Below, in pieces: positions 9,354 to 62,709 of a stretch of 64,000 nt of DNA. The notes beneath the pieces were generated by a model that was given only the letters and a program-made list of their open reading frames with translations, searched no databases and was not told where the DNA came from. Positions within the stretch are counted from its first letter, which is position 1, and each line of letters starts with the position of its first letter. Source of the DNA: Bacillota bacterium (lineage in GTDB: Bacteria > Bacillota > Clostridia > Acetivibrionales > DTU013); assembly GCA_023435925.1 (NCBI GenBank), contig JAEZLF010000310.1, positions 999-64,998 on the forward strand, given 5' to 3'. Position numbers and translations under genes: made by a program.

Positions 9354-9895
9354 TAAAAATGAACAGGGAGGAATTCCTGATGGAATCCTCCCTGCTGCTT
9401 CAGATGTTCGGTTTAACTACCTGTAACGCCAGCATTAATTCATTTAAGGTGAGCCATTGTCATTCAATTACTGCCCGAATCACCATTGGCCATCCCGTAG
9501 GATCAGCTCCAATTCTACAATTTCTTGTAAAACAAAAGCTGTAATCATCTGCGGGATTGAAGTTGAAGAAATTATCCAACTTAATCATCTCCCAGCCTTG
9601 GAATGAATACTATACCAACACCAAGCATACTGTAATAACCATAAATGGTTATCCATAGTACACGTGGTATAGCCTCCAGCTTAGATACTAAACCACACCC
9701 TTCAGCACTGCGGACACATAATCAATATATCACTTACTATATTGATCAACTACTGCATCCGATACTATTATGAGCTTTCTATCGATAAATATTCCAGGAG
9801 AGATGCTCAATCGTTATGGCAATATCTGATAGGTTTTATTAATCAGATTCTGTGAAATAATAAATAAAACTATATAGAAAAAGGAGAATGAAGCT

Positions 9896-10036
9896 ATGAG
9901 CCACAAAGGAAATAAAGATCATAAAGTATCGTCAAAAACAAAATCCAGGAATAAATCGGAGAAAAATATTAACCCAAACAATGCAGGATCTGATTTCAAT
10001 AATCAAAGTGAACCGAAAGAAAAAGCAAAGCAATAA
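9896..10036 (+). CDS. small (46 aa) highly basic/hydrophilic protein upstream of ku
   Basis: AAAGGAGA RBS 7 nt before the ATG. Translation: MSHKGNKDHKVSSKTKSRNKSEKNINPNNAGSDFNNQSEPKEKAKQ. It is below the ORF-track size cutoff. Confidence 0.4.
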   Translation: MSHKGNKDHKVSSKTKSRNKSEKNINPNNAGSDFNNQSEPKEKAKQ

Positions 10037-27974: not shown

Positions 27975-28282
27975 CAGCAATTCGGAAAGTATATTTTTGA
28001 GAATTAACAAATGCGCAATTGCATCAAAGAAATAAGATTTCACTGGTGCAGGTATTATGCAGGTTATTGTGTGGTGTTTATCCTAAAAAGAATCATATTT
28101 TATTTTATATTTTCATAAATAAATTTGCCCTTAACATGACACCATCTCCTTTCCTCAAGATTTAACCATTTTTATCCTACCATTCAGGGTTATTGTCGTC
28201 AATATAATTCATGATACTATTGTATGAATTCGGGAATAACTAAGAACAAATACATGCTATGCTAATAGAGAGGTTGATAAAT

Positions 28283-28477
28283 ATGAGTAAAAATAAAAAG
28301 CCAAACAGACTGATTAATGAAAAATCTCCATACTTACTCCAACACGCTCATAACCCCGTAGACTGGTACCCCTGGGGGCCGGATGCCTTTTCACGAGCTG
28401 TTTCCGAGGATAAACCCATATTCCTCTCCATCGGCTATTCCACTTGTCACTGGTGCCAGTTTCATCAAATACACTAA
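28283..28477 (+). pseudogene. host 5' portion of the DUF255/YyaL-type thioredoxin-domain gene, severed by prophage insertion (attL side)
   Basis: GAGAGG RBS. Translation [58 protein letters not shown] is followed by six phage-derived codons and a stop. Composition is host-like. Confidence 0.85.
28442..28458. repeat. attL core block ACTTGTCACTGGTGCCA (inferred crossover dinucleotide CA at 28457-28458)
   Basis: This is the last stretch shared with 62728-62744 and 27945-27961. The integrase stop codon lies only 16 bp to the right. Confidence 0.7.
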
Positions 28478-29988
28478 TTGTATTCAATTTCTATTTCTGC
28501 ATCTTCACTTACTCTAGTCCATGTTATAACCTTAATTAGTTTTTTATATATTGTATTCAAATTAATAACATTAATTATTTTTAATCTATTTAACATATCC
28601 TTATAATAAGTAATTCTATCCTCTGGATTTACGCTTTGTAAATTTAACATTTTTCTTTCCAGTATATCAATTTCTTTAGTAGTTGAATAAACTAAACTTT
28701 CCCATTTCTCTTTTCTTTGTAACCATTCGTCTCTTTTATAATCTCCCAATTCATAAGCTTCGTTGACCTTATCTAAAGCAGAAACGTATTTTTCATAATC
28801 TTTTTGCTTTTTGCTTATTTCTATTTTCAAGGTTTTGATATCATTGACATAATTCCCATCATCATTTTTCTCGAGCAATTCTATTGATTTTTTAATATGA
28901 ATCTCTGCTTTCTTTTTTACCGTTTCTAATACTTCTTTATAATTTCCCCCTCTATTCGCACACTTTTCCCCCACTTCGCTTATGTGCCAGCATGGTTTTA
29001 TAAGTATATAACCATTATTCTTTTTTTGAAATGTCATGCCATAACCACATATACCACATTTAATTAGTCCACTTAATTCATATGTTCCTGCTCTCGCCCT
29101 TTTAGGTGTTTTTTGTCGTTTATTAATTAACTCTATTATTATATCGTGTTCCAATTGTGTTTTAGTAGCTTCATGACAGTTATCAACGATATTCCATTCA
29201 CTTCTAGGTAGTTCTCTATATTCTTTAGCATTAGATTTCTTAATCTTATGCCCATCGCCCTTTGTTTTATTTGTGATAATTTTACCTAGGTGAGTTTCGT
29301 CTGTTAATAATCTATATATTGCTACATTTGACCAAGCTTTACCTTTAGAACTCAATATATTTTTCTTATTCAAATCAATTGATATATTTTGTGGAGTTAC
29401 ACCTTTTAAAGCTTGTTCAATAATATATCTGTAAATCTCTAATTTTTCATCATTTACAACTAAACCTTTTTCATTAAACTTACCATTCCACTCTTGATAT
29501 TCATAAGGGAATGGAGGAATCCCATTTGTCCAATTACCCATCTTTGCTCCGGCTTTTTTACCTTGTCTTAATCTTCGGGTTATGGTTTTATATTCGTGTC
29601 TTGCGAAGAAACTTTGAAAATCAGAATAATCTTCATCTGATTCATTATTTAAGTCATAAATTTTACTTGGAGTAATAATTAATGTGTTAGATTTTTTTAA
29701 TATATCTTCAATATAACCTTGCTCATTTTTGCTTCCTCTTGACAATCTATCATAATCCATTACAACTACCGCATCATATAACTCTGATTCAACTTCGCTT
29801 AGAAGTTTTTTAAATTGTGGTCTCATCTCAATACTGTCTGATGTTCCAATTTCTGCATATTCAACATATTTCCAATTATTTTTCTCGCATAATTCTACTA
29901 ATGCATTCCTATGCTTCTGGAGGTCTTTTTCTTCATCACCCCTTGACTTTCTTAAATATATCGCAACAAATCTAACATCATATGTCAT
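28474..29988 (-). CDS. large serine recombinase (phage integrase)
   Basis: The N-terminal resolvase domain ([16 protein letters not shown]) is followed by a recombinase domain, a zinc-ribbon (CGICGYGM...C) and a coiled-coil. The ATG at 29988 has an AAGGGG RBS; the track uses an upstream TTG at 30012. Confidence 0.9.
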
Positions 29989-30008
29989 AATTTTCAACCC
30001 CTTAATAG

Positions 30009-30140
30009 TCAATATTTGGCTATTTCGTTTCTATTATATTTAACAATGTCAATTTTGTCAAATACACTTCCAATTGCTTGTGCTGTTTTCTTAATTGCCT
30101 CATCAGATGGCTGATTTTTAATTATTACGTTTATTTTCAT
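30009..30140 (-). CDS. small 43-aa protein immediately upstream of the integrase (possible directionality factor; function unknown)
   Basis: GAGGGAG RBS directly upstream of the ATG (about 2-nt spacer). Translation: MKINVIIKNQPSDEAIKKTAQAIGSVFDKIDIVKYNRNEIAKY. The stop abuts the integrase start region. Confidence 0.35.
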   Translation of the reverse strand: MKINVIIKNQPSDEAIKKTAQAIGSVFDKIDIVKYNRNEIAKY

Positions 30141-30172
30141 ATCTCCCTCACATTCTTATCAATAAAAATTGC

Positions 30173-30208
30173 AAAAACAAAATAGGGACATACCATTTGG
30201 TACACCCC
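30173..30208 (-). terminator. rho-independent terminator after the holin gene (end of the late operon)
   Basis: Minus-strand hairpin GGGGUGUACCA..UGGUAUGUCCC (with G-U pairs) followed by UAUUUUGUUUUUG. Confidence 0.55.
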
Positions 30209-30235
30209 TCATTTATATATCTTGTATTTACTTTA

Positions 30236-30658
30236 TTACTCTACATCGTCTTTCTCTTCCATAATCTGATCTTTTGCTACCTTAAACCATTTCATAATAA
30301 CATTGGGCAATTTGATATCCATGCCTATTGAATTCTCAATAATTGAGGCCAATTCCTTGAAGCAGAATGCACCAATGAAAATAGTTCCCACTGGAACATT
30401 GATTCCATTTAGCATAGCAACCCTTTGACCAAGTATCAAAGCAAATAATAAGAAGAATTCTCCAACCTTTTTCAGCATTCCAACTTTCATTTCATGGCTG
30501 GAAAAGTTACCATTCTTAAAGCTTTTAATAACTCCTGTTATGATGTCTACACTCATGAGTATTACCCATATGATTATGATTTCCCAGTTTAAGCCAGCTA
30601 GGTAAGCACACAATCCTAGAAAAGAACCTAATATTATATCAATAAAACTATTTTTCAT
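30236..30658 (-). CDS. phage holin (holin_4 / toxin-secretion-lysis holin type)
   Basis: 140 aa with 3-4 TM helices and a charged C-terminal tail. The pattern WVILMSVDIITGVIKSF...GMLKKVGEFFLL is typical of this holin family. Confidence 0.7.
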   Translation of the reverse strand: MKNSFIDIILGSFLGLCAYLAGLNWEIIIIWVILMSVDIITGVIKSFKNGNFSSHEMKVGMLKKVGEFFLLFALILGQRVAMLNGINVPVGTIFIGAFCFKELASIIENSIGMDIKLPNVIMKWFKVAKDQIMEEKDDVE

Positions 30659-30693: not shown

Positions 30694-32394
30694 TTAATAA
30701 TTACCTCCACCCCTACTTTGTACAAATATCTGCTTAGTTACTGTAGCAGCCATTCTTGCTAATCCTGAAGGGTTATTAGATGTCGTACTTGGATATATCT
30801 CTACCGTATGAAACGCTCCACGAGTAACTTTGCCGTTTGATTGAGACAAGTAAGGTATAATATCAATATCGCTACCGGAGAGGCTGGTTACCGGAATTGT
30901 AGTGCCATCTACTTTAATTATTACTGATGTTGGCAGATAATAAAACTCGTAGATACCATAGTTGATGTCATGTGTATGCGAAGGAATTGAAACTTCATGA
31001 TTATGCGCTGGTATATCAAGTTGCGGAGAGTATACCCAATGATAATGATTTCCGTTGTATGGTGTTGAAATTTCCGATGCAACTCCGAATGCAAATACAA
31101 GTGCTTCTGAAGATGATGAAGCTGTGCTACCTCCTCCAGATGCAGAACCTGTTTCATATGCCCTGAATTTATCCGTTTCAAATGTCAATAAGCATTTATT
31201 TACCGCCACACATTCATTGGGAATATAGAATTTAATAGTAGCAGGATGAGAATTATCGCAATTATCCTGATAATCATCACTATCAATACAAGTAGTCCCT
31301 TGGGCGTATACATCATTGATATGTTGCTTGCTCTGGATGCTGGTTGTAATATCTGCTATATCCAAAGCTTTATTGGATATCTCAATCTGTATATCTCCCG
31401 GATTGCCTGTTAAGTCAGATTTACTAACCCCCATAATTCTGGCAGTAAAATTGCCTATATCTACATCATAGACATCGACAAGTATACCCGGTTCCGTAAA
31501 TTTATCTAGGGTATCTCCTGAAATAGAATATATATCAGCTCCATCTATTGTATATGTAATTCTTGGATTTTTTACAGTCTCCAACCATGCTAATGCTTTA
31601 GCCTTTAATGTTGCAGCACTCTCTGTAGACTTGTCAATAAATGTTATTGCCTTAACTCCATATAAACTTAATGTATCTGCATCCAGATAAGGTACACCTA
31701 CATTTACATCTTTTATAGTTAGCTGGTTAATGCCCTCACCATATCCTAGTGGATATACCCTTGTTATAATATAGCTTGGATCTTCATCTTTTGTTATACC
31801 TACAAGATTTTTTTGATATATTATACGTGCTGTAGCTGTACTAGGAGGATTTATTAGATTTACTGTCCATGGATAACTTATAGTATCCCATGTCCACTGA
31901 TATGCTCCTGTATAGGCTTTGGGTAGACTAAATAATGCACTTAATAGATTTTCGTTTGACCATCCATAGTCAAATATGTTTACAAAGTCTACAGTACCTC
32001 TTACCCAATTTGTTGTTGTCTGCCTGCTTAAGATATAGTCAATATTGACAGATGGGACATAACCAACAGACTGATGATACTGGAACATGATATCATCCAG
32101 CAGAGTAGCTAGTACGTGCTCACATTGGTATGTTATAGTTTTACCATCAGCAGATTTTTGAAACTTACTCGGTACTATCCTAAAGAGTTCAACACGTTCT
32201 CCATTATCAAATATTTCGACATATCTAAAAGCTGTACATTCCGCATTTTTAGGATCATCTGCTGGTAAACTAAATTGTGCTGTCCATACTTCGTTAAATC
32301 TTTTTGTATATCCAATATCGTATGCATTTTGTAAAATAGCAACAGGGTTAGTGGTACTAACCCCGTAATCATAAATCTTTATCAAGTTTTTCAC
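30694..32394 (-). CDS. phage minor structural protein / tail-tip anti-receptor (Tal-like N-terminus, ReqiPepy6 gp37-like C-terminus)
   Basis: The N-terminus IYDYG....AILQNAYDIGYTKRFNEVWTAQFSL...VEIFDNGERVELFRI is typical of siphovirus anti-receptor N-terminal regions. The C-terminus is His-rich (HNHEVSIPSHTHD). The likely start is the TTG at 32385, 8 nt after an AGAGG RBS. Confidence 0.65.
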   Translation of the reverse strand: MKNLIKIYDYGVSTTNPVAILQNAYDIGYTKRFNEVWTAQFSLPADDPKNAECTAFRYVEIFDNGERVELFRIVPSKFQKSADGKTITYQCEHVLATLLDDIMFQYHQSVGYVPSVNIDYILSRQTTTNWVRGTVDFVNIFDYGWSNENLLSALFSLPKAYTGAYQWTWDTISYPWTVNLINPPSTATARIIYQKNLVGITKDEDPSYIITRVYPLGYGEGINQLTIKDVNVGVPYLDADTLSLYGVKAITFIDKSTESAATLKAKALAWLETVKNPRITYTIDGADIYSISGDTLDKFTEPGILVDVYDVDIGNFTARIMGVSKSDLTGNPGDIQIEISNKALDIADITTSIQSKQHINDVYAQGTTCIDSDDYQDNCDNSHPATIKFYIPNECVAVNKCLLTFETDKFRAYETGSASGGGSTASSSSEALVFAFGVASEISTPYNGNHYHWVYSPQLDIPAHNHEVSIPSHTHDINYGIYEFYYLPTSVIIKVDGTTIPVTSLSGSDIDIIPYLSQSNGKVTRGAFHTVEIYPSTTSNNPSGLARMAATVTKQIFVQSRGGGNY

Positions 32395-32402
32395 CTCTAA
32401 AA

Positions 32403-33395
32403 TTATATAACGTTCTTTTCATGTTCTTGCATCACAGTATCTACGTTCAGTTGCGCATATATCTGTGTTGTGACAGGGCTTTCGTGTCCTAAATATCTCT
32501 GAACCACTGCCAATGAAGCACCATTGTTAAGCATATTTGATGCTGTAGTATGTCTCATCAAGTGAGGGTAGACAGGCTTTGTAATACCCGCTTTTGCGCC
32601 AAGCTCCGAAAATGTTCTTTCGATAGCCCTCCTACCAAGTCTGGCATGAGGCTGCCTCTCGCTAACAAATAAAGCATCATCATTATCCGTCCTTGAGTTA
32701 AGGTATTTCCACAGTGATACTTTTGCTTTGGCATTGAGCCTTACTGGACGTTCTTTTCTGCCTTTGCCAAGAACAATAACCCTGCTGGTAGACCAATCTA
32801 TACTACTTTTGTTAAGAGGTTGAACTTCATCTAGGCGGCAACCTGTAGAATAAAAAAATTCCACCAACGCTCTATCCCTAAGATTTGTACTTGCTGCATC
32901 TCGTAACATCTCAAATTCTTCAGCTGTTAATGCCTTGCGCACATATTTATTTGTCTTAATGGCTTTTATTTTTCTTAATGGGCTTTTTAAGATATATTCT
33001 TCGTCCTCCAACCATGTAAAGAATGCTTTGAGTGCAGAAAGCATCGTTGACATTGTGCTGTTCTTTACTCCAGTCTTTGCGTACGATGTCATGTACATAC
33101 GAATATCCATTGTAGTGATGTTCTCAATATCTTTCTGTATAAAACGAGAGAAACGTGTCAGTTGAATCTTGTATGATTTCAGTGAATGCGGCGATAATCC
33201 ATCCAACCTTTTAGCGGCCAGATAAAGAAATATCTTTTCGTTAATGTTAGTAATAGGTACTAATGCTCTTGTGACCGGATGCAGTTCGTAATCGTACAGT
33301 TCTTCTTCCAAAATGATACGGAGCTTTGCTACTTGCTCACTGTTAAGAATGTCCCATGTCCTATCCAGAACCCTGATGATAAATTCCTCACGCAT
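32403..33395 (-). CDS. XerC/XerD-like tyrosine recombinase embedded in the tail module
   Basis: SAM-like N-domain plus a catalytic domain carrying R (STGCRLDE), HxxR (HLMRHT), LGH and the Tyr motif (TTQIYAQ). AGGAGG RBS. The stop lies 8 nt before the next gene. Confidence 0.85.
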   Translation of the reverse strand: MREEFIIRVLDRTWDILNSEQVAKLRIILEEELYDYELHPVTRALVPITNINEKIFLYLAAKRLDGLSPHSLKSYKIQLTRFSRFIQKDIENITTMDIRMYMTSYAKTGVKNSTMSTMLSALKAFFTWLEDEEYILKSPLRKIKAIKTNKYVRKALTAEEFEMLRDAASTNLRDRALVEFFYSTGCRLDEVQPLNKSSIDWSTSRVIVLGKGRKERPVRLNAKAKVSLWKYLNSRTDNDDALFVSERQPHARLGRRAIERTFSELGAKAGITKPVYPHLMRHTTASNMLNNGASLAVVQRYLGHESPVTTQIYAQLNVDTVMQEHEKNVI

Positions 33396-33402
33396 GATAA
33401 AT

Positions 33403-33470
33403 GCCTCCTATTGAATATCTAGGAGGCGTAATGTATAATTACATTGCAAACACATAGTACCCTCCTAGAT
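33403..33470 (-). promoter_or_regulatory. 5' leader of the recombinase gene with mutually exclusive SD / anti-SD / decoy-SD hairpins
   Basis: In the RNA, GCCUCCUAGAU (33427-33417) can pair with the true SD UAGGAGGC (33410-33403; 8 bp). It can alternatively pair with the upstream AUCUAGGAGG (33470-33461; 10 bp). The loop contains the palindrome GTAATGTA-TAAT-TACATTGC. Confidence 0.5.
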
Positions 33471-33553
33471 AGGGGCCTGTGTGAGGAAGCTTCTCGGTTG
33501 CCGCCGTGGAGCTTCCTTTGCTATATAAATATTTATAGCATGACCTTGCCTAT

Positions 33554-33582
33554 ATTATACCAAACATATGTTCGTGTATCAA
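33554..33582 (-). promoter_or_regulatory. sigma-A-type promoter for the recombinase gene
   Basis: Minus strand: TTGATA, 17-nt spacer, TATAAT. Confidence 0.55.
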
Positions 33583-33640
33583 GGATTACATGCTATTTCT
33601 TGAAAATTATTACTTCGCTTTCTACCCTTAGAAAATGAAT

Positions 33641-33664
33641 AAGGCCTCCGATTAAGGAGGTCTT
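33641..33664 (-). terminator. terminator after the MazF-like gene
   Basis: Minus strand GACCUCC-UUAAUC-GGAGGCC followed by UUAUUC. Nearly the same hairpin recurs at 50693-50720. Confidence 0.5.
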
Positions 33665-33746: not shown

Positions 33747-34322
33747 TTATGCTTCTTTCTTGATAATGTCAACATCTGAAAATAAAATTTTTGCAACGGA
33801 TAGTTCAATATCTTGTCTACTTGTAACTACATCATAATATCCTTTTGCTTGGTACAATCTTTGTAAATCTACACATCTTGCATTTCTAACTTGTAATTTG
33901 GTCAATCTGCCATTAATAAAATCTTTCACTTCAATTGAAAACTCCGAATCTTCTTCAACATCAATATTAGTATTATCATCTGAAGTTGAAGGAATTATTA
34001 AATATTTTGTCTTAAATTTTTTCAAGATATAGCACCAATGACCTCCAAACAATTCTTTTGGAAAACCATGCCCTAAATTAAAATATGCCATCTGATGGAT
34101 ATTTGGCTCTGTTTTTAATTTATAATATGTGTCATTTGGATTTTTATCTTTATTATTCTCAACATATTTTGTAAAAAATCTATCTAATTGTTCTATTTGC
34201 AATTTTAAATCATATAAAAATCCGTGCTTGTCATATTTTCTTCCATTCGTATTATCTTCAGGCATATTCTTTATATCATGAAAAATATGTGCTATTTCCC
34301 ACATTTCTTTATATATATTCAT
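33747..34322 (-). CDS. PemK/MazF-fold toxin-like protein with an N-terminal extension of about 85 aa (orphan, no adjacent antitoxin gene)
   Basis: The C-terminal half aligns by eye to MazF/EndoA blocks: AYFNLGHGFPKELFGGHWCYIL, YLIIPSTS, LQVRNARCVDLQRL. The ATG at 34322 has a GGAGG RBS, and the gene has its own promoter and flanking terminators. Confidence 0.5.
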   Translation of the reverse strand: MNIYKEMWEIAHIFHDIKNMPEDNTNGRKYDKHGFLYDLKLQIEQLDRFFTKYVENNKDKNPNDTYYKLKTEPNIHQMAYFNLGHGFPKELFGGHWCYILKKFKTKYLIIPSTSDDNTNIDVEEDSEFSIEVKDFINGRLTKLQVRNARCVDLQRLYQAKGYYDVVTSRQDIELSVAKILFSDVDIIKKEA

Positions 34323-34365
34323 ATAACTTCCTCCACACTCACAAATTTCTCTCACATTATACCAC

Positions 34366-34428
34366 TTATTGTATATATGTGAAAGATTTTGTAAGAAAGA
34401 TTAGAGGAATGAGGGGAGATGACTCCCC
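34366..34428 (-). promoter_or_regulatory. terminator of the tailspike gene (GGGGAG-UCAU-CUCCCC) followed by an extended -10 promoter (TGgTATAAT) for the MazF-like gene
   Basis: The hairpin is at 34413-34428 with a U-rich tail. The ATTATA (-10, minus strand) is at 34366-34371, preceded by TGG. Confidence 0.45.
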
Positions 34429-34453: not shown

Positions 34454-35182
34454 CTATGCATTAGGTATTCTCAACACTCTATATCCTGCACCACCCGAAT
34501 CGTTCGTACCGATCGACACGTTAAGTCCTCCATATTTTAATCCCGCTACTGCAACCACGCCAGTTCCTGTTGCTCGTGTGAATCTCAAATCTCCTGTAGC
34601 TGTTTCGACGTTTACGTTCCATTTACTGAGAGCATCACCAGCTAATAACCCTATGTGCGAGTTAGAACCACATATCATCATGGGTTCGGTTGTTAGTGCG
34701 GCTAAAGCCAGATTGATAGCGTTATCGGTAGTACCTATACACATTTTTTTAAAATGTTCATTGTTGTGGTATCCATAACTAGTTGACCAATGCACCGTAG
34801 CACCAGTTTCGATTACAGGGTCTTTTGTGGCATTTCCCTTATCAATCTGTAAAATTGTCGTGTTCCGTGAAGGGTAAGTGTAGCTCTCTGTACCCCTTGC
34901 AACAATTGACAACGCATTAGTTTTCCATGAAATTCCCACATGCACAAAATAATTATCAGCCGCACCCGATACATTGGTATCATTACGACCTCGCAATTCA
35001 ATGCCTATACCTGTACTATCATTTGACAATACATGAACTCTCGTCTGAATAAATACGTTATTATCTGCATTATCAAGTACTAGTCCTATACCGTTATGTA
35101 TCGCACCCTGTATACCTTCAAAGTAGTTATAAGAAGTATTACCCCATTTTCCAGCTACGGATTGACCACCAGATAAAAACAA
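34454..35182 (-). CDS. C-terminal part of a beta-helix tailspike-like protein (same frame as 35219..36007, separated by one TAA)
   Basis: Gly/Asn/Thr-rich beta-helix-like repeats. There is no RBS and only a TTG start, and the frame is open back to the TAA at 35219-35221. Confidence 0.6.
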   Translation of the reverse strand: MFLSGGQSVAGKWGNTSYNYFEGIQGAIHNGIGLVLDNADNNVFIQTRVHVLSNDSTGIGIELRGRNDTNVSGAADNYFVHVGISWKTNALSIVARGTESYTYPSRNTTILQIDKGNATKDPVIETGATVHWSTSYGYHNNEHFKKMCIGTTDNAINLALAALTTEPMMICGSNSHIGLLAGDALSKWNVNVETATGDLRFTRATGTGVVAVAGLKYGGLNVSIGTNDSGGAGYRVLRIPNA

Positions 35183-35218: not shown

Positions 35219-36007
35219 TTATCTAAATGTATTTTTCTGTGAATCACATGCTTCTGCTATTGCTCCGGCTGTATCAACACCCACGAATAATCCAGATGTT
35301 TCAAATTCGTCAAAGTATAAAGATTCAAAACGAGAATTATTAACACTTTTTATAACTAATCCATACCCTGCAAGACTATTAGCAATAAAAGATATATTAG
35401 ATACTTCGCATGAGTCAATGCGAGTTAATGATGTTATATGAGGACATAATTCCATCATCGTACCACTTGCAGCACCGATCCAAGTAAAACGTGTGGCTGC
35501 TATATTACCGGAAGCATCATGTATATCGCCCATACCAAATCCAATAAGATGAATGTTTGAACCATCAATAACTATCTTGTTTCCTATGCCATAATTAGCA
35601 GGAGGAAAAATAATATATGCACCATTTACCGACTTTGCATATTGAATCATAGCATTAATAGCCGTTGAATCGTCTGTGCCATCACCTTTACATGCCACAA
35701 GTGGAGCAGGTGGAGCAAAAACATTAATATATATCTTTGCAGTTTCTGCCTTATGCGACAAAGCATCAGTCTCCATATCCTCAAGCCGATCGGTTAAAAC
35801 GGTATAATTTTTATCTTTTACTATGCTATGCCTAGCATCAACAATCTCTGTGTTACTGGCTCCTGCTCCTGCAATTATATTATCAACACGATCCTCCAAG
35901 GCATTATGACCTGTCATAGTATCATTAAAATTATCTTTAACAATTGTCCACCAGTCACGAAGCTTTGTAAGTCCTGTAAATGCTGTATTTAAATTTAATT
36001 TACTCAT
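35219..36007 (-). CDS. N-terminal part of a pectate-lyase-superfamily tailspike/depolymerase-like protein
   Basis: GDGTDDSTAINAMIQYAKSVNGAYIIFPPANYGIG is typical of the Pectate_lyase_3 N-terminus. The ATG at 36007 has a GAGGAGG RBS. The ORF ends at a TAA that is in frame with the following ORF. Confidence 0.65.
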   Translation of the reverse strand: MSKLNLNTAFTGLTKLRDWWTIVKDNFNDTMTGHNALEDRVDNIIAGAGASNTEIVDARHSIVKDKNYTVLTDRLEDMETDALSHKAETAKIYINVFAPPAPLVACKGDGTDDSTAINAMIQYAKSVNGAYIIFPPANYGIGNKIVIDGSNIHLIGFGMGDIHDASGNIAATRFTWIGAASGTMMELCPHITSLTRIDSCEVSNISFIANSLAGYGLVIKSVNNSRFESLYFDEFETSGLFVGVDTAGAIAEACDSQKNTFR

Positions 36008-36017
36008 TATTGCCTCC

Positions 36018-36848
36018 TCACAAATATTGTGGTCTAAAATCAAAAAGCACTGTGCAATTTAAGCCAGTGCCTGTAATACTTACTGTGTTATTTCCGGGTA
36101 CAAGTTTCAAAAATCGTATTAAATCTCCTGTGCAATTAAATAATGCATTATTGCCATTAGCCTTAATAGTTGCATCTACATTGTTAATAATAACTGTTTT
36201 CTCCGATACAGCAGTATTATAATTGATTGTTCTACCATTAATTGTAATACTCAAGGTTGAAAAGCTACCAGTTATAACTATGTCAAATTTACTACCATCT
36301 GGAGAACCTAAACCAACATCTTGAGTGCCTATATAGTTAATGTTAGCACTGGTATTGCTTGTTACAACCATAGTATAAGGATCTGTTGGATTAAGGGTAA
36401 TGTCACTATCTAATAATAAATCATTATCTATAATCACTTCTTCTCCAGATGACACTTGATAAAGAGCAAATGGTAAACATTCAAATTCAATTGTACATAC
36501 ACCCAACTTTGCAAATGTCCCTAGTTCAACGGCATCATAAATTCTTGCAAGATAGTATTTATCCGGTTCGTCATTAAAAGTAAGTGGTTCATAGGTGGTT
36601 CCGCTTAACCATGCTGCGATATCCCTTGCTTGTAACCTCATATTATTTTCATCCGTCCCTACAAACTGGAATAGGACAGATATGAATCTATTTTCATATT
36701 CATTTTCGTCAAAATCATAGCTGCCATGTTTACCCGGTATTCTCAATTGCTTTTTTGTGAGAGTTGGTATCATAGGACGATTAATAGATTTTGCAATAAT
36801 ATCAAAATCTTTAAAGCTGTGTTTACCTTTATATGTTATCTCTGTCAT
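36018..36848 (-). CDS. distal tail protein (Dit; siphovirus tail family protein)
   Basis: It sits directly after the tape measure gene. The N-terminus ITYKGKHSFKDFDIIAKSINRPMIPTLTKKQLRIPGKHGSYDF is typical of the Sipho_tail family. Confidence 0.75.
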   Translation of the reverse strand: MTEITYKGKHSFKDFDIIAKSINRPMIPTLTKKQLRIPGKHGSYDFDENEYENRFISVLFQFVGTDENNMRLQARDIAAWLSGTTYEPLTFNDEPDKYYLARIYDAVELGTFAKLGVCTIEFECLPFALYQVSSGEEVIIDNDLLLDSDITLNPTDPYTMVVTSNTSANINYIGTQDVGLGSPDGSKFDIVITGSFSTLSITINGRTINYNTAVSEKTVIINNVDATIKANGNNALFNCTGDLIRFLKLVPGNNTVSITGTGLNCTVLFDFRPQYL

Positions 36849-39136
36849 GCTGTTACCACCCCTATTCCTCTCGCTCTGAACCTACCGTTACTGTACTGTA
36901 TCTTTGATACAGTTTTAGTAATTTCCTTACCATCAAGATAAACCGGCTGTACCAGCGTTAATTCAGCCGCACCCGAACCCATATAAGAAGTCGATTTATT
37001 AACATCATTGCTCATATTGGTATCGTAATCTCTTTTTTGAGATGGTATGGATTTAGCCATATTGATAGATACTGTTTTCATTTCATCCTCAAAGCCTGTA
37101 CCAATACCCATAGCCATATACTTGCCAACTTCATCAGCCAACACCTGAGATGGAGATTTAATCTTCAGCTTATCCTTGATTCCATCAACTATATCACCAG
37201 CAAATCCTGTTATCTTGTCCCATAACCAGTTTGTTGTACTCTTTATTCCATCCCAAATACCAGCAACAATATTTTTACCTACTTTAACCATTTCAGGAAT
37301 AGCATTCATAAAACTGTTGATTACACCTGTGATTATTTCGGGTATTGTAGATACCAATTGAGGAATAGCCTTTATCATACCTTTTGAAAGCTCAACAATA
37401 AGCATAATACCCATTTCAATAAGTTTCGGAAGGTTTCTAATAATAGCATCTACCAATTTGATAATGATTGTTGGTACTTTTTCTATTAATCGTGGCAATG
37501 CTTCTATTAGTCCTTCTGCCAGTCCCATAATAATTGCAATAGATGCATCGATTAGCAAATCAATGTTATCAATTAGCGTTTCAACTATCATGATGATAGT
37601 GTCAACCAATGCCGGTATCAATTCAGGTAGTGATTCAGTTATCCCGGTAGCCAGTGCAAGTATTATTTCCATTGCACTTTTGATTATCATAGGGAGATTT
37701 TCAATAAGTGTTCGTACAAGTGCCATCATAAGTTGTAGTGCCCCATCTACAATTTGAGGCAACGCACCTACCAACCCTTGCACTAACGATGTAATAATTG
37801 TAACCGCTGCTACAATGATCACCGGTAGATTATCCACTATCGCCTGTATAAGTGTGTTGATTATTTTCATACCCATATCAATGAGACCTGGGAGGTATTC
37901 CATGATTTTATCTATAACTTTAGTTAATGTGTCGGATACAACATCAACTATTTTGCTTATATCGCCATTCGCTTCATTGACCCCGGATGTAAACTCTCCA
38001 AGAAGGTCAACCCCTTCTCCGGCAATAGTGGATAAGATGGGTAGTAATACACCACCAAGGGCATTTTTTGCACCTTCTGCACCGACTTTCAAAAATTGCA
38101 TCTGATCATCGAATTCGCCAAATGCATCCAGTGTATCACCCGACATTACATATCCGGCTTCCTCTGCCTTTTTTGCCAGCTCATTCATTTTTTCAGATCC
38201 AGCTTCAATCAATGGATTTAGCTCTTGTGCTGACTTGCCGAGTAGTTGCATTCCAAGCGCATCACGTTCAGTCTCATTTGTTATTTTGCCGAGAGCATCA
38301 ATGGTTTCCCAGTATACAGTTTGTCCATCTCGCAATGACCCATCAGCGTTCATTACTTCTACGCCAAGCTTTTTGTAAGCATCAACCGACAGCTTTGTAC
38401 CGTCTTGTGCCGCCTTCATGGATTTAATTTGTTTAGCCATGGATTTTGTGAGGGTTTCCAGAGGCACATCCACCAATTCGGCTGCATATTTGTATTTCTG
38501 CAACTCATCTGTTGCAATACCTGTTTGTGTAGAAGTTGTTAGTATATCATCGGCATATTGAGCCGCCGATGCACTCATCCCAACAAGTGCACTTCCCGCA
38601 GCCGCAGCCGCAGCTCCAAGTGCTGCCACAACTTTTACGGCAAGTTCCCCAGCTTTTTTGAGACCTGACCCAAGTTTACTCCAGCCGGATTCTCCATCTT
38701 TTGCTTTATCGCCTGATTTTTTAGCCTGATCTCCGGCATTTTCAGTCTGATTTCCAGCCTTCTCTACATTATCACCAGTACCTTTTGCCTGATCCTCAAG
38801 CCCTTTTAACTTAATCTCTGTTGCTGCTACTTCCCGCTGGAAAGAGCGATAATGTTCTTCAGATATTTTACCTTCTTTGAATTGTTGCTGAACTTGCTTT
38901 TCAGCTTCTTTAAGTTTATCAAGTTTCTCCCTTGCACTATCCACAGATTCAGCCAATAACTTTTGCCGTTGAGCCAATAAATCAGTGTTAGTAGGATCGA
39001 GTTTTAGCAGTTTCTCAACCTGTCTCAACTCAGTCTGCAAATCTCTGCTGGTTTTATTTACACCTTGTAATGCTTTATCTAGTGGAGCGGTATTACCGCC
39101 TATATCTACAATAATTCCCTTTATATTATCTGCCAA
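36845..39136 (-). CDS. tail tape measure protein
   Basis: About 760 aa with a coiled-coil N-terminus, a long hydrophobic repeat core (LPxLI..A..II repeats), and a position after the G/GT chaperone. The likely start is the TTG at 39136 after a GGAGG RBS; the track ORF extends to 39208. Confidence 0.85.
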   Translation of the reverse strand: MADNIKGIIVDIGGNTAPLDKALQGVNKTSRDLQTELRQVEKLLKLDPTNTDLLAQRQKLLAESVDSAREKLDKLKEAEKQVQQQFKEGKISEEHYRSFQREVAATEIKLKGLEDQAKGTGDNVEKAGNQTENAGDQAKKSGDKAKDGESGWSKLGSGLKKAGELAVKVVAALGAAAAAAGSALVGMSASAAQYADDILTTSTQTGIATDELQKYKYAAELVDVPLETLTKSMAKQIKSMKAAQDGTKLSVDAYKKLGVEVMNADGSLRDGQTVYWETIDALGKITNETERDALGMQLLGKSAQELNPLIEAGSEKMNELAKKAEEAGYVMSGDTLDAFGEFDDQMQFLKVGAEGAKNALGGVLLPILSTIAGEGVDLLGEFTSGVNEANGDISKIVDVVSDTLTKVIDKIMEYLPGLIDMGMKIINTLIQAIVDNLPVIIVAAVTIITSLVQGLVGALPQIVDGALQLMMALVRTLIENLPMIIKSAMEIILALATGITESLPELIPALVDTIIMIVETLIDNIDLLIDASIAIIMGLAEGLIEALPRLIEKVPTIIIKLVDAIIRNLPKLIEMGIMLIVELSKGMIKAIPQLVSTIPEIITGVINSFMNAIPEMVKVGKNIVAGIWDGIKSTTNWLWDKITGFAGDIVDGIKDKLKIKSPSQVLADEVGKYMAMGIGTGFEDEMKTVSINMAKSIPSQKRDYDTNMSNDVNKSTSYMGSGAAELTLVQPVYLDGKEITKTVSKIQYSNGRFRARGIGVVTA

Positions 39137-39704
39137 TGATATACCTCCCTTCCAAATTTCTCTCTTAATCTCTCTCGATCTGGTTTTGTCTGCTCTAATA
39201 TCCAACATCGTTCAAGATATTCTTGTCCTTCTTGAGTTTGCATGCATTTATAAATTACTGCATCCCTTAATAGTGCCTGATATTCAAATGCATCAAGATT
39301 CTCGATCTGAGCAAAATTAAAGCCGGTATATTCTGATACCAGCTTCTCTTCAAGGTAATTTAATTGATAATGTCCCTCATCGTCTTCTTCAGGGGCGTGA
39401 GGGACTTTTAGTTTGGGCTGTTCTTTACCTCATTTAACCATTTAAAATATTCAGTCAGTATTGTAAGATACTGATCCATATCAAGTTCGTCTATTACTTC
39501 ATCAGGCACTTTATATCCTGTTTTATTCTTTGATAAAATCATTTTTACTGCTTCGGATAATTCATCAATTGCATTGTTATTATGATTTTTTGATAAATCT
39601 ACTATTTTTCTTAAAACTTTTATTTTTGGTGGCTCTACTTCAAGTTCTACATCGTTTATTTTTATGTTGAAATATCGTCTATTTATAGTGCTTATGTCAA
39701 GCAT
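39121..39704 (-). CDS. tail assembly chaperone G and its -1 frameshift extension GT
   Basis: The G product is 39408..39704. The -1 frame is open from a UGA just upstream of the slip site to a stop at 39121, giving KEQPKLKVPHAPEEDD...TQEGQEYLERCWILEQTKPDRERLREKFG. Confidence 0.65.
39411..39417 (-). promoter_or_regulatory. programmed -1 ribosomal frameshift heptamer C_CCA_AAC
   Basis: A canonical X_XXY_YYZ motif lies immediately before the G stop codon. It sits inside the only window where the shift can occur. Confidence 0.6.
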
Positions 39705-50177: not shown

Positions 50178-50395
50178 AATGAAAATCACCTCATATTATT
50201 ATACTGCAAATTCTGGTAATTTTCTTCATGTTTTAGCAAATCATTAGAAAAAATATTTCTATATTGAGTAATTGCAATAGGACTAAATTACTATATTTAT
50301 TTCCATTTTTCGTATTGACTTGTATATCAAAAGTGGTACAATATGCTGTGCAAGAACAAATGTTCATACAATATTTTGTAAAAGGGGGTGAGATA

Positions 50396-50545
50396 ATGCC
50401 AGCAAAGAAAAATAGTGTTAGAACTACAAAAAGTACTGCTACTAAAGCAGCGAAAGCGCTAAGTAATCCCAATTCACCAACACTTCTAAAAAAACTTGCA
50501 GCAAGTTCATTAAGCAACCGGCGGAAAAAGAATAAAGGCTCTTGA
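50396..50545 (+). CDS. small (49 aa) very basic protein
   Basis: AAGGGGGTGA RBS. Translation: MPAKKNSVRTTKSTATKAAKALSNPNSPTLLKKLAASSLSNRRKKNKGS. A GGGCAG..CTGCCC plus T-run terminator lies downstream. Confidence 0.5.
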   Translation: MPAKKNSVRTTKSTATKAAKALSNPNSPTLLKKLAASSLSNRRKKNKGS

Positions 50546-50692
50546 TACATATCTAAGCCTTTATCTAACTGTTTTATTTCATATGGGCAGGTCTCTCGCA
50601 AAGGCTGCCCTATTTTTCTGTAGATTATTTCTACATAGAATTAAAAAATCCTGCTAAATTAAATTATTTATTGTGTAAATTTTCACACAATG

Positions 50693-50720
50693 AAAAAGGC
50701 CTCCGATTAGGGAGGTCAAA
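50693..50720 (-). terminator. rho-independent terminator
   Basis: Minus strand GACCUCC-CUAAUC-GGAGGCC followed by UUUUUC. Confidence 0.55.
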
Positions 50721-62532: not shown

Positions 62533-62709
62533 ATGAAAGAATTTATTGATAATAAATACAAAAATGCAAACCGTTTAATTAACGAAAAATCACCTTACCT
62601 ATTACAACATGCTTACAATCCAGTAGATTGGTATCCTTGGAGTGATGAGGCTTTTCAGAAAGCTGCAAGAGAAAGCAAGCCTGTATTCTTGTCCATAGGC
62701 TATTCATAG
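62533..62709 (+). pseudogene. phage-borne, AT-rich homologue of the target gene's 5' end (copy C), ending at an in-frame TAG
   Basis: [59 protein letters not shown] 21-nt insertion (TAGTTGCGGCGTATTATATTT, 62707-62727) sits relative to copies A and B, and the frame then continues TCHWCHV. Confidence 0.75.

Follow-up and report, generated by a model that had tools for sequence, protein, structure and literature searches.

In the 64,000-nucleotide stretch of DNA analysed in this work (the window), a prophage carries a gene coding for a Xer-like tyrosine recombinase preceded by a complex regulatory region. We suggest, with moderate confidence, that the two belong to a self-contained accessory module of temperate Clostridia phages, in which three layers of control act on a "simple" tyrosine recombinase that is Xer-like and catalytically competent. 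The gene, the sequence motifs, the alternative pairings conserved in its leader and its conserved genomic slot are directly observed; the regulatory architecture of the module is new, and the sequences compared support it well.

The Recombinase and Its Prophage Context

The gene and its neighbours are the following:
28474-30012: large serine recombinase, sited at the prophage end and abutting a split host gene
30694-32385, minus strand: Tal-like tail protein (Prophage_tail), probably starting at the TTG at 32385, which follows the recombinase stop by 17 nt
32342-32366, minus strand: hairpin resembling a terminator, inside the opening 20 codons of the Tal-like gene (scan only)
32403-33395, minus strand: Xer-like (XerA/XerD-type) tyrosine recombinase of 330 aa, with Pfam, NCBIfam and PDB matches
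33641-33664, minus strand: terminator hairpin of the upstream cassette (orf202), from the terminator scan

The product of 32403-33395(-) is a genuine Xer-like recombinase and, judging from its residues, a catalytically complete one. It matches the Pfam Phage_integrase domain (PF00589, 5.7e-37) and the SAM-like N-domain (PF02899, 2.9e-15), and reaches 223.4 bits with the NCBIfam XerA model (cutoff 220), the scores with the XerC and XerD models being 211 and 194, both under their own cutoffs; the top PDB matches are XerA (5hxy, 8.4e-33) and XerD (1.3e-24). The catalytic R, K, HxxR, H and Y all align to those of XerA and XerD, within the motifs GCRLDE, GKGRKER, HLMRH, LGHES and TQIY, and the protein lies nearer to the Xer models than to the arm-type phage integrases. 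An N-terminal extension of about 57 aa is specific to its clade. The identity as an integron integrase was rejected (84.5 bits with TIGR02249, cutoff 265; 47.5 with NF011946, cutoff 435), and no repeated site, as in an attC-bounded cassette array, occurs at the cassette boundaries.

The gene is located about 4 kb inside the prophage, whose end is held by the serine recombinase. A role in integration and excision was rejected, given that the gene is not at the prophage end and that this is not the sole integrase; the Xer-like recombinase is not the phage integrase. Serine integrases co-occur with a Xer-like recombinase in the window and in two other loci (L001 and L007). The domains, the residues and the promoter described below all agree with the preliminary description of a complete Xer-like recombinase, expressed from its own promoter, in the late region of a serine-integrating phage.

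The junction between the recombinase and the Tal-like gene is also present in the relatives L135 and L136. As regards the possible coupling of Tal-like and holin expression to the recombinase leader, proposed previously, in most relatives a terminator directly follows the recombinase gene, and it is absent at that spot in the window; the hairpin at 32342-32366 could represent a candidate end point for the transcripts of the recombinase promoter. The separation of Dit and Tal pointed out previously is real, since Dit ends at 36018 and the Tal-like TTG is at 32385 (3.6 kb), but the recombinase is not its cause, the gap being 1.1-3.4 kb in recombinase-less relatives. As for the two terminators previously placed upstream, the sequence at 33641-33664 is terminator-like, whereas the hairpin at 34413-34428 is present but was not flagged by the scan. 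A 29-nt near-copy of the former hairpin is found at 50689-50717. The prophage may be in decay, because its tailspike gene has an in-frame stop and an endolysin was not found. Its SPbeta-like traits comprise an RNA polymerase similar to YonO, a serine integrase and a small gene with a LexA box.

Recurrence of the Module in Clostridia Phages

The gene had been regarded as an oddity of one phage; the comparison with its homologues does not agree with this idea, as these are found, in many phages, in the same slot between tail and lysis genes; two of the phages, TPELB_ph1 and phiCp-D, are isolates and share the order tail genes, recombinase, holin. The recombinase is a recurrent cassette that closes the tail module; it usually lies immediately 5' of holin or lysin genes and usually has its own terminator. 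The 49 downstream neighbours include 13 Phage_holin_4_1, one Holin_LLH, one XhlA and about nine lysin matches. A survey of related phages for the same insertion had been suggested, and the insertion does recur in many Clostridia phages.

The Promoter and the LexA Box

Two features lie upstream of the leader:
33554-33582, minus strand: promoter of the recombinase gene (P_rec), sigma-70 type, with -35 TTGATA at 33582-33577 and extended -10 TGgTATAAT at 33562-33554
33561-33574, minus strand: LexA (Cheo/SOS) box CGAACATATGTTTG, occupying the spacer between -35 and -10

The TTGATA-17-TATAAT promoter previously assigned to the gene is thus found at 33582-33554, scores 11/12 with the extended TG present, and has a predicted transcription start near 33547; its layout is conserved in the relatives. 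The LexA box in its spacer had been overlooked. The sequence CGAACATATGTTTG corresponds to the clostridial LexA operator consensus GAACN4GTT(C/T) (PMC4234289) and overlaps the promoter, as expected for a member of the LexA regulon. Among 60 distinct upstream regions, 12 carry GAACN4GTTY at this same point of the promoter (background 2.7%), and all 12 carriers fall within the clade at ≥49% identity. On this sequence basis, the recombinase gene is apparently switched on by DNA damage through LexA.

The Leader RNA and Its Alternative Pairings

The leader, previously estimated at about 150 nt, is computed to be about 152 nt long. In the 5' to 3' direction of the transcript, it contains:
33520-33539, minus strand: hairpin P1 (GCUAUAAAU..AUAUAGC), with compensatory C-G to U-A changes
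33485-33516, minus strand: hairpin P2, supported by covariation
33471-33484, minus strand: near-invariant UCACACAGGCCCCU, from the leader alignment
33461-33470, minus strand: P3 5' arm AUCUAGGAGG, the decoy SD, from alignment and covariation
33408-33455, minus strand: 15-codon uORF (ATG at 33455-33453, TAG at 33410-33408)
33417-33427, minus strand: P3 3' arm, the anti-SD GCCUCCUAGAU, from alignment and covariation
33404-33409, minus strand: true SD of the recombinase gene, AGGAGG

The sequence GCCUCCUAGAU has two alternative pairing partners, the true SD (33409-33404) and AUCUAGGAGG (33470-33461), and the CCCCU within UCACACAGGCCCCU is able to pair with the true SD once P3 is formed. A leader model, R1, has a single match in the window and is found directly 5' of the recombinase gene in 25 further loci, the full-length matches amounting to 29 and representing 24 distinct sequences; it is absent from the 62 other Xer-like loci of the genome scan, which are mostly from Bacillaceae and cover 1.0 Mb in total. 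The leader folds better than shuffled sequences (z -3.8 and -3.95). Both alternative pairings are found in 24/24 distinct homologous leaders, the decoy-SD:anti-SD hairpin ranging from -13 to -25 kcal/mol and the anti-SD:true-SD one from -7 to -17 kcal/mol, vs. -3 to -6 for shuffles.

In an alignment fitted to the leader model, 94% of the cells are paired and 21 of 23 pairs display compensatory changes, the slid controls giving 44-52%; such covariation is compatible both with RNA pairing and with DNA symmetry, and with either strand being the one that matters. The counts of G-U and A-C are equal (14 vs. 18), as expected if both strands fold. The covariation test does not apply to UCACACAGGCCCCU, because its bases are invariant, and the length of the P1 loop differs between relatives. 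The three-way, mutually exclusive SD pairings previously proposed are therefore strongly supported, being kept in the 24 distinct leaders with co-variation of the variable bases, and this retention with compensatory changes supports the existence of a translational switch. Nevertheless, the minimum-energy structure computed for the sense leader keeps the true SD paired with CCCCU even with P3 formed, so that the OFF/ON direction adopted below is a model rather than a result. The window has no Rfam match at the gathering score, and an E-value scan gave only sub-threshold similarity, to the terminator hairpin.

The uORF behind the decoy SD escaped the earlier reading. Its TAG ends 2 nt 5' of the GGAGG core of the true SD, and AUCUAGGAGG probably doubles as a working SD for it. 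Comparable uORFs are present in 11/11 type-A leaders, nine ending at the same TAG and two at or over the recombinase start codon, and their peptide is not conserved; our own inspection of the leaders beyond type A did not make a uORF evident.

A Convergent Promoter and a Predicted Antisense RNA

Two features are located on the opposite strand:
33411-33439, plus strand: convergent antisense promoter TTGAAT-17-TATAAT, from the promoter scan, with its -10 in the P3 loop
33446-33525, plus strand: putative antisense RNA of about 80 nt, from promoter and terminator prediction

What is conserved in the P3 loop is ATTATA, i.e., TATAAT on the opposite strand, with TTGnnn 17 nt away. An antisense promoter scoring at least 10/13 is present in 18 of 20 leader variants (background 3%), and its -10 falls within the P3 loop in the variants inspected by eye. 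On the plus strand, P2 followed by the U-tract 33517-33525 would constitute the intrinsic terminator; in the 9-nt flanks of P2 in the 24 leaders, a mean of 6.0 A precede it and 1.1 T follow. The conserved loop and the A-run before P2 fit the promoter and terminator of a putative antisense RNA of about 80 nt, which would span the uORF start, the decoy SD, CCCCU and P2, and whose predicted fold (-38.5 kcal/mol, z -5.5) consists of a 5' stem-loop plus the terminator hairpin. Two features expected of a cis-antisense RNA are therefore present in the sequence, namely a convergent promoter in the leader and a terminator bounding a short RNA. Neither had been noticed in the preliminary description.

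Proposed Mechanism and Substrate

Four elements of the model that we propose are predictions: that LexA binds, that an antisense RNA exists, which way the switch works and which DNA serves as the substrate. In the first layer, the LexA operator in the sigma-70 spacer would keep the gene silent in the lysogen and let it fire upon DNA damage. In the second layer, the strong convergent leader promoter would produce the antisense RNA of about 80 nt, ending at P2 and complementary to the P3 5' arm, the uORF start and CCCCU. In the third layer, the leader would alternate between two folds, one with the decoy SD:anti-SD helix (P3) formed and the true SD weakly held by CCCCU, the other with the anti-SD paired with the true SD. 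The antisense RNA, by occupying the P3 5' arm, would release the anti-SD and lock the true SD (OFF), while an SOS-driven burst of sense transcription would outpace the antisense promoter, or occlude it, so that P3 could form (ON). In this sub-family, translational coupling would be provided in addition by a uORF of 13-15 codons whose end lies in the true SD.

As to the DNA on which the enzyme might act, in the relatives the upstream edge of the module is marked by a dif-like palindrome with a 6-bp spacer, TCGCAATA-GGAwww-TATTGCGA (site S), at which synteny breaks; a dif-type site consists of two inverted arms around a spacer of 6-8 bp. This boundary palindrome was likewise missed by the earlier reading. 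Site S is strong in about seven lineages only, and the inner bases of its arms are variable. Its counterpart in the window is the following:
33609-33622, minus strand: degenerate right half of S, GAAAGCGAAGTAAT, with the left arm missing; a weak assignment, made by comparison with the relatives

As only this degenerate half is present in the window, the enzyme may be without a cis substrate here. Even so, among the sequences compared, an S-type site at the upstream edge of the module is most likely the substrate, rather than the palindrome of the leader loop, and would be used after the manner of Cre/loxP or XerS/difSL. We consider it most likely that, upon induction, the enzyme would act on phage DNA at a single site, either monomerising replicating genomes or bringing about exchange with a similar site of another phage. 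It is doubtful, even if conceivable, that this reaction extends to an SOS-triggered phage mosaicism, in which co-induced prophages would recombine S-type sites at the tail/lysis junction, swapping receptor-binding and moron cassettes, so that host range would be altered by site-specific rather than homologous recombination. In a still more exotic variant, the conserved RNA of about 80 nt would be a cofactor of the recombinase as well as a regulator.

If the regulatory model is true, the leader would represent a compact phage RNA control motif (decoy SD/anti-SD/SD plus a countertranscript) absent from Rfam, and a second recombinase would be under direct control of the host SOS response, with no dependence on the switch of the phage itself. 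Should the enzyme work at the boundary between tail and lysis genes, this would bear on the exchange of host-range modules in gut and environmental Clostridia phages.

Alternative Explanations

A possible, albeit rather unlikely, alternative is that the module is a cassette-exchange platform or a selfish mobile cassette, whose SOS-induced recombinase swaps receptor-binding and moron cassettes, or itself, at S. Self-movement might take place between co-induced phages, the integron integrase acting at attI providing the model. This idea is in agreement with the hypervariability of the region just 5' of the module in otherwise near-identical phages, where homology resumes at a sharp boundary; in L005 and L006, for instance, the modules are 99.75% identical, while the unrelated DNA that separates S from the conserved N-terminus of the tail fibre measures 3.2 kb and 0.75 kb, respectively. 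Moreover, the module is present in the window and L135 and absent from L136-138, L134 harbors a remnant of it in a different slot, and the putative LexA control in 12 of 60 upstream regions recalls the integron integrases. LexA control with very tight repression is typical of integron integrases and transposases. However, each locus has a single S-like site, and a partner is found neither 3' of the gene nor at the distal end of the cassettes; the left cassette boundary is in-frame within the tail-fibre gene, as in ordinary homologous module exchange; and the variable inner bases in the right arm of S would be odd for a crossover site. The score of 84.5 bits with the integron-integrase model (cutoff 265) also argues against it, and known defence genes are not enriched in the upstream cassettes.

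It is very unlikely that the enzyme is a DNA invertase of the Fim, Rci or RecV kind, flipping a tail-fibre or promoter segment in a phase-variable manner. This possibility derives from the Anaerostipes branch of the family (35% identical), in which a 191-bp segment directly 5' of the gene, flanked by AAATAATGATTTAT / ATAAATCATTATTT, is inverted between genomes, with larger inversions around it. In the 28-40 kb part of the window, though, inverted repeats are short and do not exceed chance level, and the window has no oppositely oriented alternative tail-fibre cassettes; an independent assembly with the exact protein has the same arrangement, and no inversions were seen among the phage-borne relatives.

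The palindrome of the P3 loop is located as follows:
33425-33447, minus strand: imperfect palindrome of the P3 loop, with no other copy in the window

It had been suggested that this palindrome (33428-33447) is a dif-like core, the recombinase inverting or deleting DNA that ends there and the SD switch alone setting its level, a reading that we regard as highly improbable. The palindrome itself is real, with a roughly 8-6-8 geometry, and two phages of a related sub-family (L022 and L031) lose homology within the equivalent loop/3'-arm region, at the S-like TCACAATA-CCCTCC-CTTTGTGA. On the other hand, the search for second copies as recombination partners found none in the window at ≤3 mismatches; the frequency of the 13-mer core is not above chance there; the arms are not conserved among type-A leaders, which keep only ATTATA and the flanking bases; and no inversions near the gene were seen in close phage relatives. 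In addition, the spacer of the anti-SD/SD inverted repeat measures between 3 and 9 nt depending on the sub-family, as suits a hairpin but not a recombinase core of fixed length. The conserved loop bases are better explained as the -10 of the antisense promoter than as a dif-like site.

Finally, it is extremely improbable that the protein has an integrase fold but only binds DNA as a regulator, without recombining it, as does the SPbeta/phi3T repressor SroF (YopR): such repressors are known and SroF is reported to have lost catalysis (bioRxiv 10.1101/2025.11.27.690993), and the prophage has the SPbeta-like traits mentioned above, but the recombinase, unlike SroF, keeps all the catalytic residues, and its promoter carries a LexA box, a LexA-repressed gene being unable to act as the lysogenic repressor.

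Comparison with Known Systems

With respect to the FimB/E, Rci and RecV invertases, the distant Anaerostipes branch has an inverton directly 5' of the gene, whereas the phage-borne clade has neither flanking inverted repeats nor flipped variants. The IntI/attI system shares with the module a tyrosine recombinase, the (here predicted) direct LexA control and an adjoining variable gene-cassette region; nonetheless, this enzyme fails the integron-integrase model, attC-like partners and cassette arrays are lacking, and the cassettes are co-oriented with the gene.

In IS10 (RNA-OUT/RNA-IN) and in plasmid R1 (CopA-tap-repA), antisense control is exerted on the translation of a recombinase and of a replication protein, respectively. 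The features in common are a convergent leader promoter, a short, structured and self-terminated antisense RNA (predicted here), a target including the ribosome-binding site and a leader-peptide stop in the SD of the main gene. There is no sequence or Rfam relationship with these systems, and the three-part decoy-SD/anti-SD/SD design deduced here sets the module apart from them.

As to the enzyme, XerA/dif, XerS/difSL and Cre/loxP of phage P1 rely, like this module, on simple tyrosine recombinases without an arm-binding domain. In the XerS/difSL and Cre/loxP layouts the recombination site adjoins the gene, and in the relatives of the module a palindrome with a 6-bp spacer lies just upstream. 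The module differs from the Xer single-site systems in the N-terminal extension of about 57 aa, the location in a phage late region, the degenerate site in the window and the predicted SOS, antisense and SD-switch control.

Tyrosine recombinases are also found in the structural modules of phages such as Tyrovirus (gp50), the Lactococcus 949 group and Perkons, and their role is described as curious and unexplained (PMC9703825). These too are Xer-like recombinases co-oriented with the late genes, in phages with other lysogeny functions. Their slot extends from neck to tape measure, while here it lies between tail end and lysis; their putative site (11-6-11) is 3' of the gene, and an SOS box or antisense leader is not described for them (PMC9703825). 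For such late-region recombinases, the module might offer several handles, that is, a predicted inducer, a predicted antisense RNA, a covariation-backed switch and a candidate DNA site.

The Recombinase and Its Place in the Prophage

The recombinase gene and its leader belong to a recurrent, tightly regulated cassette, for which the Shine-Dalgarno (SD) switch proposed in the preliminary description is supported and the dif-like site is not. The gene does encode a complete tyrosine recombinase, as had been stated: its product contains a Phage_integrase catalytic domain and a SAM-like N-domain, its best solved-structure relatives are XerA (8.4e-33) and XerD, and in alignment with XerA/XerD every catalytic residue is in place (R, K, HxxR, H, and Y, in GCRLDE, GKGRKER, HLMRH, LGHES, and TQIY). 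The protein scores 223.4 against the XerA model (curated cutoff 220) and falls below the cutoffs of the XerC and XerD models. Judged from its sequence, it is a Xer-like simple tyrosine recombinase. Model scoring rules out an integron integrase, the gene position and the co-resident serine integrase rule out the integrase of this phage, and a SroF-type dead integrase-fold repressor was also ruled out.

At either end of the prophage (~34 kb, - strand, about 28.5 to 62.7 kb) stands a copy of the 5' portion of a thioredoxin-like host gene. These similar 5' ends, of the DUF255 type, lie at 28259-28477 and 62533-62709, and the phage apparently supplies a new start to the gene that it interrupts. No close DNA relative or near-identical phage was found among GenBank phages; the single independent assembly returned by an exact-protein look-up has the same arrangement as the window, whose late genes are ordered as follows.

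Late gene order of the prophage
36845-39208, - strand, tape measure
36018-36848, - strand, Dit
35219-36043 and 34454-35182, - strand, pectate-lyase-like tailspike, two ORFs
33747-34355, - strand, orf202
32403-33395, - strand, recombinase
30694-32385, - strand, Tal-like Prophage_tail protein
30236-30658, - strand, holin
28474-30012, - strand, large serine recombinase

Some neighbouring features deserve mention in their own right. The tailspike is one frame interrupted by a single in-frame stop at 35219-35221 (..QKNTFR*ITFKQRVKNGAGLFLSGG..), which is either a pseudogene mutation or a read-through site; the split is also present in an independent assembly (L139). No endolysin is recognisable after the holin (30009-30236), where only a 43-aa ORF precedes the serine recombinase, and the other prophage proteins scanned gave no lysin-family match. 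The orf202 gene, which looks like a moron, has a promoter of its own (TTCACA-16-TGtTATAAT, 34383-34356) and a hairpin on either side; searches of Pfam, PHROGs, NCBIfam, and PADLOC gave no match for it, the fetched loci contain no homologue, and a pdif-like module around it was ruled out, the two flanking hairpins being unrelated. A 941-aa protein (52933-55758, - strand) matches PF05183 (RdRP, 3.5e-10), the family to which the single-subunit RNA polymerase YonO of SPbeta belongs; should a YonO-type enzyme read the late genes, host-type promoters and terminators there may mean something else. Lastly, a perfect palindromic LexA box, GAACAAATGTTC, at 50354-50365 is followed after ~30 nt by a strong SD and an ORF of 49 aa (about 50396-50545, + strand). 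This ORF, which is very basic and is encoded on the strand opposite to all other phage genes, has the look of a Sar/Tum-type small antirepressor controlled by LexA.

Recurrence of the Module

Earlier work (PMC9703825) reported tyrosine recombinases within the structural modules of phages and left them unexplained. Pattern scans retrieved relatives of the recombinase encoded in 50 viral and 80 genomic loci. Their 49 non-redundant downstream neighbours include 13 Phage_holin_4_1 proteins, one Holin_LLH, one XhlA, and about nine cell-wall hydrolase matches, and in the isolated phages Terrisporobacter TPELB_ph1 (which also carries a serine integrase) and C. perfringens phiCp-D, tail genes are followed by the recombinase and then by holin and endolysin. 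The upstream neighbours are diverse (esterases, deacetylases, a methylase, nucleases, and unknowns), with no enrichment of known defence genes. Thus, the slot is a classic variable region between tail fibres and lysis genes. The separation of Dit and Tal is not due to the recombinase, since in relatives of the window's Tal-like gene the two genes always lie 1.1-3.4 kb apart, also where a recombinase is absent. At exactly the same junction, locus L135 carries a 43%-identical recombinase with a different regulatory region that includes a divergent HTH gene.

The loci L007 and L016 both derive from one 58.6-kb IMG/VR contig, on which the module thus occurs twice, in copies that have diverged to 75% DNA identity and that each occupy a tail-to-holin slot; the contig may contain two tandem prophages. 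In L134 (1640-2014), the recombinase is truncated to its last 97 aa (61% identical); the boundary motif TTCGCATAAGGAAT precedes this remnant, which lies upstream of head-tail connector genes, in a slot unlike all others.

A Conserved Leader with Two Alternative SD Pairings

The leader (~152 nt) folds better than its shuffles (z about -3.9), and its 3' arm GCCUCCUAGAU, the anti-SD, has two possible partners: the true SD and the upstream AUCUAGGAGG, the decoy SD, with which it forms the hairpin P3. Both alternatives are found in 24/24 distinct leaders: the decoy-SD:anti-SD hairpin at -13 to -25 kcal/mol and the anti-SD:true-SD hairpin at -7 to -17 kcal/mol (shuffles, -3 to -6). Since the two pairings vary in step across these leaders, the mutually exclusive switch that had been proposed is supported by comparison.

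The same upstream architecture is kept among recombinases merely 49-65% identical in protein. A covariance model built from 11 leaders has a single match in the window; 25 further loci, comprising several diverged sub-families, also have matches, and these lie directly upstream of their recombinase genes. Over 1.0 Mb of other Xer-like loci (a genome scan, mostly Bacillaceae), its only matches were a window duplicate and a single close relative. In the model-fitted alignment, 94% of cells are paired (slid controls, 44-52%) and 21 of 23 pairs show compensatory changes, while the unfitted MAFFT alignment reveals near-perfect covariation of the four variable bases in P3. An independent 14-mer scan of viral contigs returned mostly noise, and the true leaders among its matches (8/118) all adjoin a recombinase. 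No Rfam family matches the leader, and a literature search found nothing on the motif or on RNA-guided tyrosine recombinases. The counts of G-U and A-C in the helices are equal (14 vs. 18), which fits helices used on both strands and equally fits DNA-level symmetry; strand assignment by these counts was dropped as uninformative.

In the window, an ATG located 5 nt after the decoy SD opens a 15-codon uORF, whose TAG overlaps the A of the true SD (AGGAGG). A comparable uORF is present in all 11 leaders of type A, the sub-family that includes that of the window; in nine it stops at that TAG, and in the other two it extends to or over the recombinase start. Because the peptide shows no conservation and the other sub-families have no convincing uORF, translational coupling through the uORF is suggestive only. 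Many loci from diverged sub-families (e.g., L018, L058, L024, and L044) share a CCGACCAAAG motif in the loop of a further leader hairpin, P2, and this conservation exceeds the need of a mere terminator loop.

Sense and Proposed Antisense Transcription of the Leader

The recombinase has the promoter of its own that had been assigned to it (P_rec, TTGATA-17-TGgTATAAT, an 11/12 match). A candidate LexA box, CGAACATATGTTTG, lies in the P_rec spacer (33574-33561). The clostridial LexA operator is GAACN4GTT(C/T), with lexA AGGAACAAATGTTTGC and recA GAGAACAAATGTTTGT as C. difficile operators (PMC4234289). A box at the same promoter position occurs in 12 of 60 distinct upstream regions, all from the close clade (background, 2.7%).

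Both hairpins described as terminators of the upstream genes exist, but the terminator scan picks up just one of them, at 33641-33664. The hairpin GACCTCC-N6-GGAGGCC plus its T-tail forms a 29-nt direct repeat (93% identical, 33634-33662 and 50689-50717, 17 kb apart); LexA-boxed promoters come after both copies, and we read it as a shared terminator rather than a recombination site. In most relatives, an intrinsic terminator directly follows the recombinase, which normally makes the module a separate transcription unit; this does not apply to the window or L135. The Tal-like gene of the window contains a terminator-like hairpin within its first 20 codons.

On the opposite strand, the ATTATA conserved in the P3 loop reads TATAAT, and 17 nt away a TTGnnn is supplied by the conserved CAA that immediately precedes the true SD. 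This putative antisense promoter scores at least 10/13 in 18 of 20 leader variants (random windows, 3%), and in the variants read by eye its -10 stays within the P3 loop, also in those whose neighbouring bases have diverged. An A-run (mean 6.0 of 9) stands before P2, with few Ts after it (mean 1.1 of 9); P2 together with the A-run looks, from its sequence, like an opposite-strand intrinsic terminator. The fold computed for the predicted antisense RNA (+ strand, about 33446-33525; -38.5 kcal/mol, z -5.5) consists of a 5' stem-loop and a terminator hairpin. On the sense strand, the region complementary to this RNA includes the decoy SD, the uORF start, P2, and CCCCU, the conserved leader bases able to pair with the true SD.

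On this basis, we propose how the module would be controlled. In a lysogen, LexA would shut P_rec, leaving the antisense promoter free; the 5' arm of any sense transcript would be bound by the antisense RNA, so that the anti-SD would be released and the true SD locked. After DNA damage, strong convergent sense transcription would outnumber or occlude the antisense RNA. P3 would then form co-transcriptionally, the true SD would be held just by the weak CCCCU pairing, and the recombinase would be made, with the uORF helping. Since the true SD is still paired in the minimum-energy fold when P3 forms, the polarity of the switch remains a model.

Candidate Substrates of the Recombinase

The loop palindrome suggested as a dif-like site is present, but its arms are not conserved (ATTATA is) and the window contains no second copy that could serve as its partner, nor a second copy of any part of the leader; the only significant repeat is the 29-nt terminator hairpin at 50689-50717. 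Spacers varying from 8 to 12 nt rule out the leader hairpin P1 as a core site, and spacers varying from 3 to 9 nt rule out the anti-SD/SD palindrome.

Among the possible reactions, we rank first a single-site Cre/Xer-like reaction on phage DNA. In several lineages, an imperfect palindrome with Xer/dif-like geometry, S (TCGCAATA-GGAwww-TATTGCGA), is found at the left edge of the module. S scores 13-15/16 in L063, L060, L007, L010, L056, and L067 (random windows, 0.2%), and a separate arms-plus-spacer scan added L035; with stricter arms-plus-spacer scoring over 4.2 Mb, almost all matches lie just upstream of a recombinase, a loose regex for the boundary motif having given mostly noise. In the window, S is reduced to a degenerate right half (GAAAGCGAAGTAAT, 33622-33609). 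Arguing against a crossover at S are the variable bases of its inner arms, the finding of a single site per locus, and a left cassette boundary that resembles ordinary homologous exchange. A second S-like site in L060, 4.9 kb upstream, lies inside a baseplate gene and is probably due to chance. Another S-like sequence in the window, TTGCAATA-GGACTA-AATTACTA (50251-50272, + strand), near the second LexA box, was set aside as borderline (~0.08 expected by chance), its spacer differing from that of the remnant beside the recombinase.

Integron-like cassette exchange is ranked second. Homology between modules begins ~235 nt upstream of the start codon and, between L005 and both L007 and L016, stops exactly at the stop codon. 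The L005 and L006 modules are 99.75% identical, but the stretch that separates S from the conserved N-terminal region of a tail-fibre gene is unrelated in the two loci. The leaders of the L018-L032 family contain an S-like sequence, and L022 and L031 lose homology at precisely that position. These two phages (about 7897-7905) are without promoter and 5' leader; in both, unrelated DNA abuts the P3 loop/3'-arm region at an identical point, immediately before AATACCCTCCC. Partner half-sites downstream of the recombinase gene are at background level.

Inversion is ranked third: no inverted repeats beyond chance flank the neighbouring genes, and no inversions were seen among the phage relatives. 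A more distant Anaerostipes branch (35% identity) has a 191-bp inverton directly upstream of its own recombinase gene, and thus the wider family includes invertases acting beside their own genes. In L124, L126, and L129 (about 9793-9983), this segment, flanked by AAATAATGATTTAT / ATAAATCATTATTT, is inverted between genomes, and the locus shows further shufflon-like inversions of 0.9 kb and 4.6 kb around the recombinase gene.

As for known systems, the control logic of the module resembles that of the LexA-regulated integron integrases and that of the antisense systems of IS10 and plasmid R1, although it has no sequence relationship with any of them.
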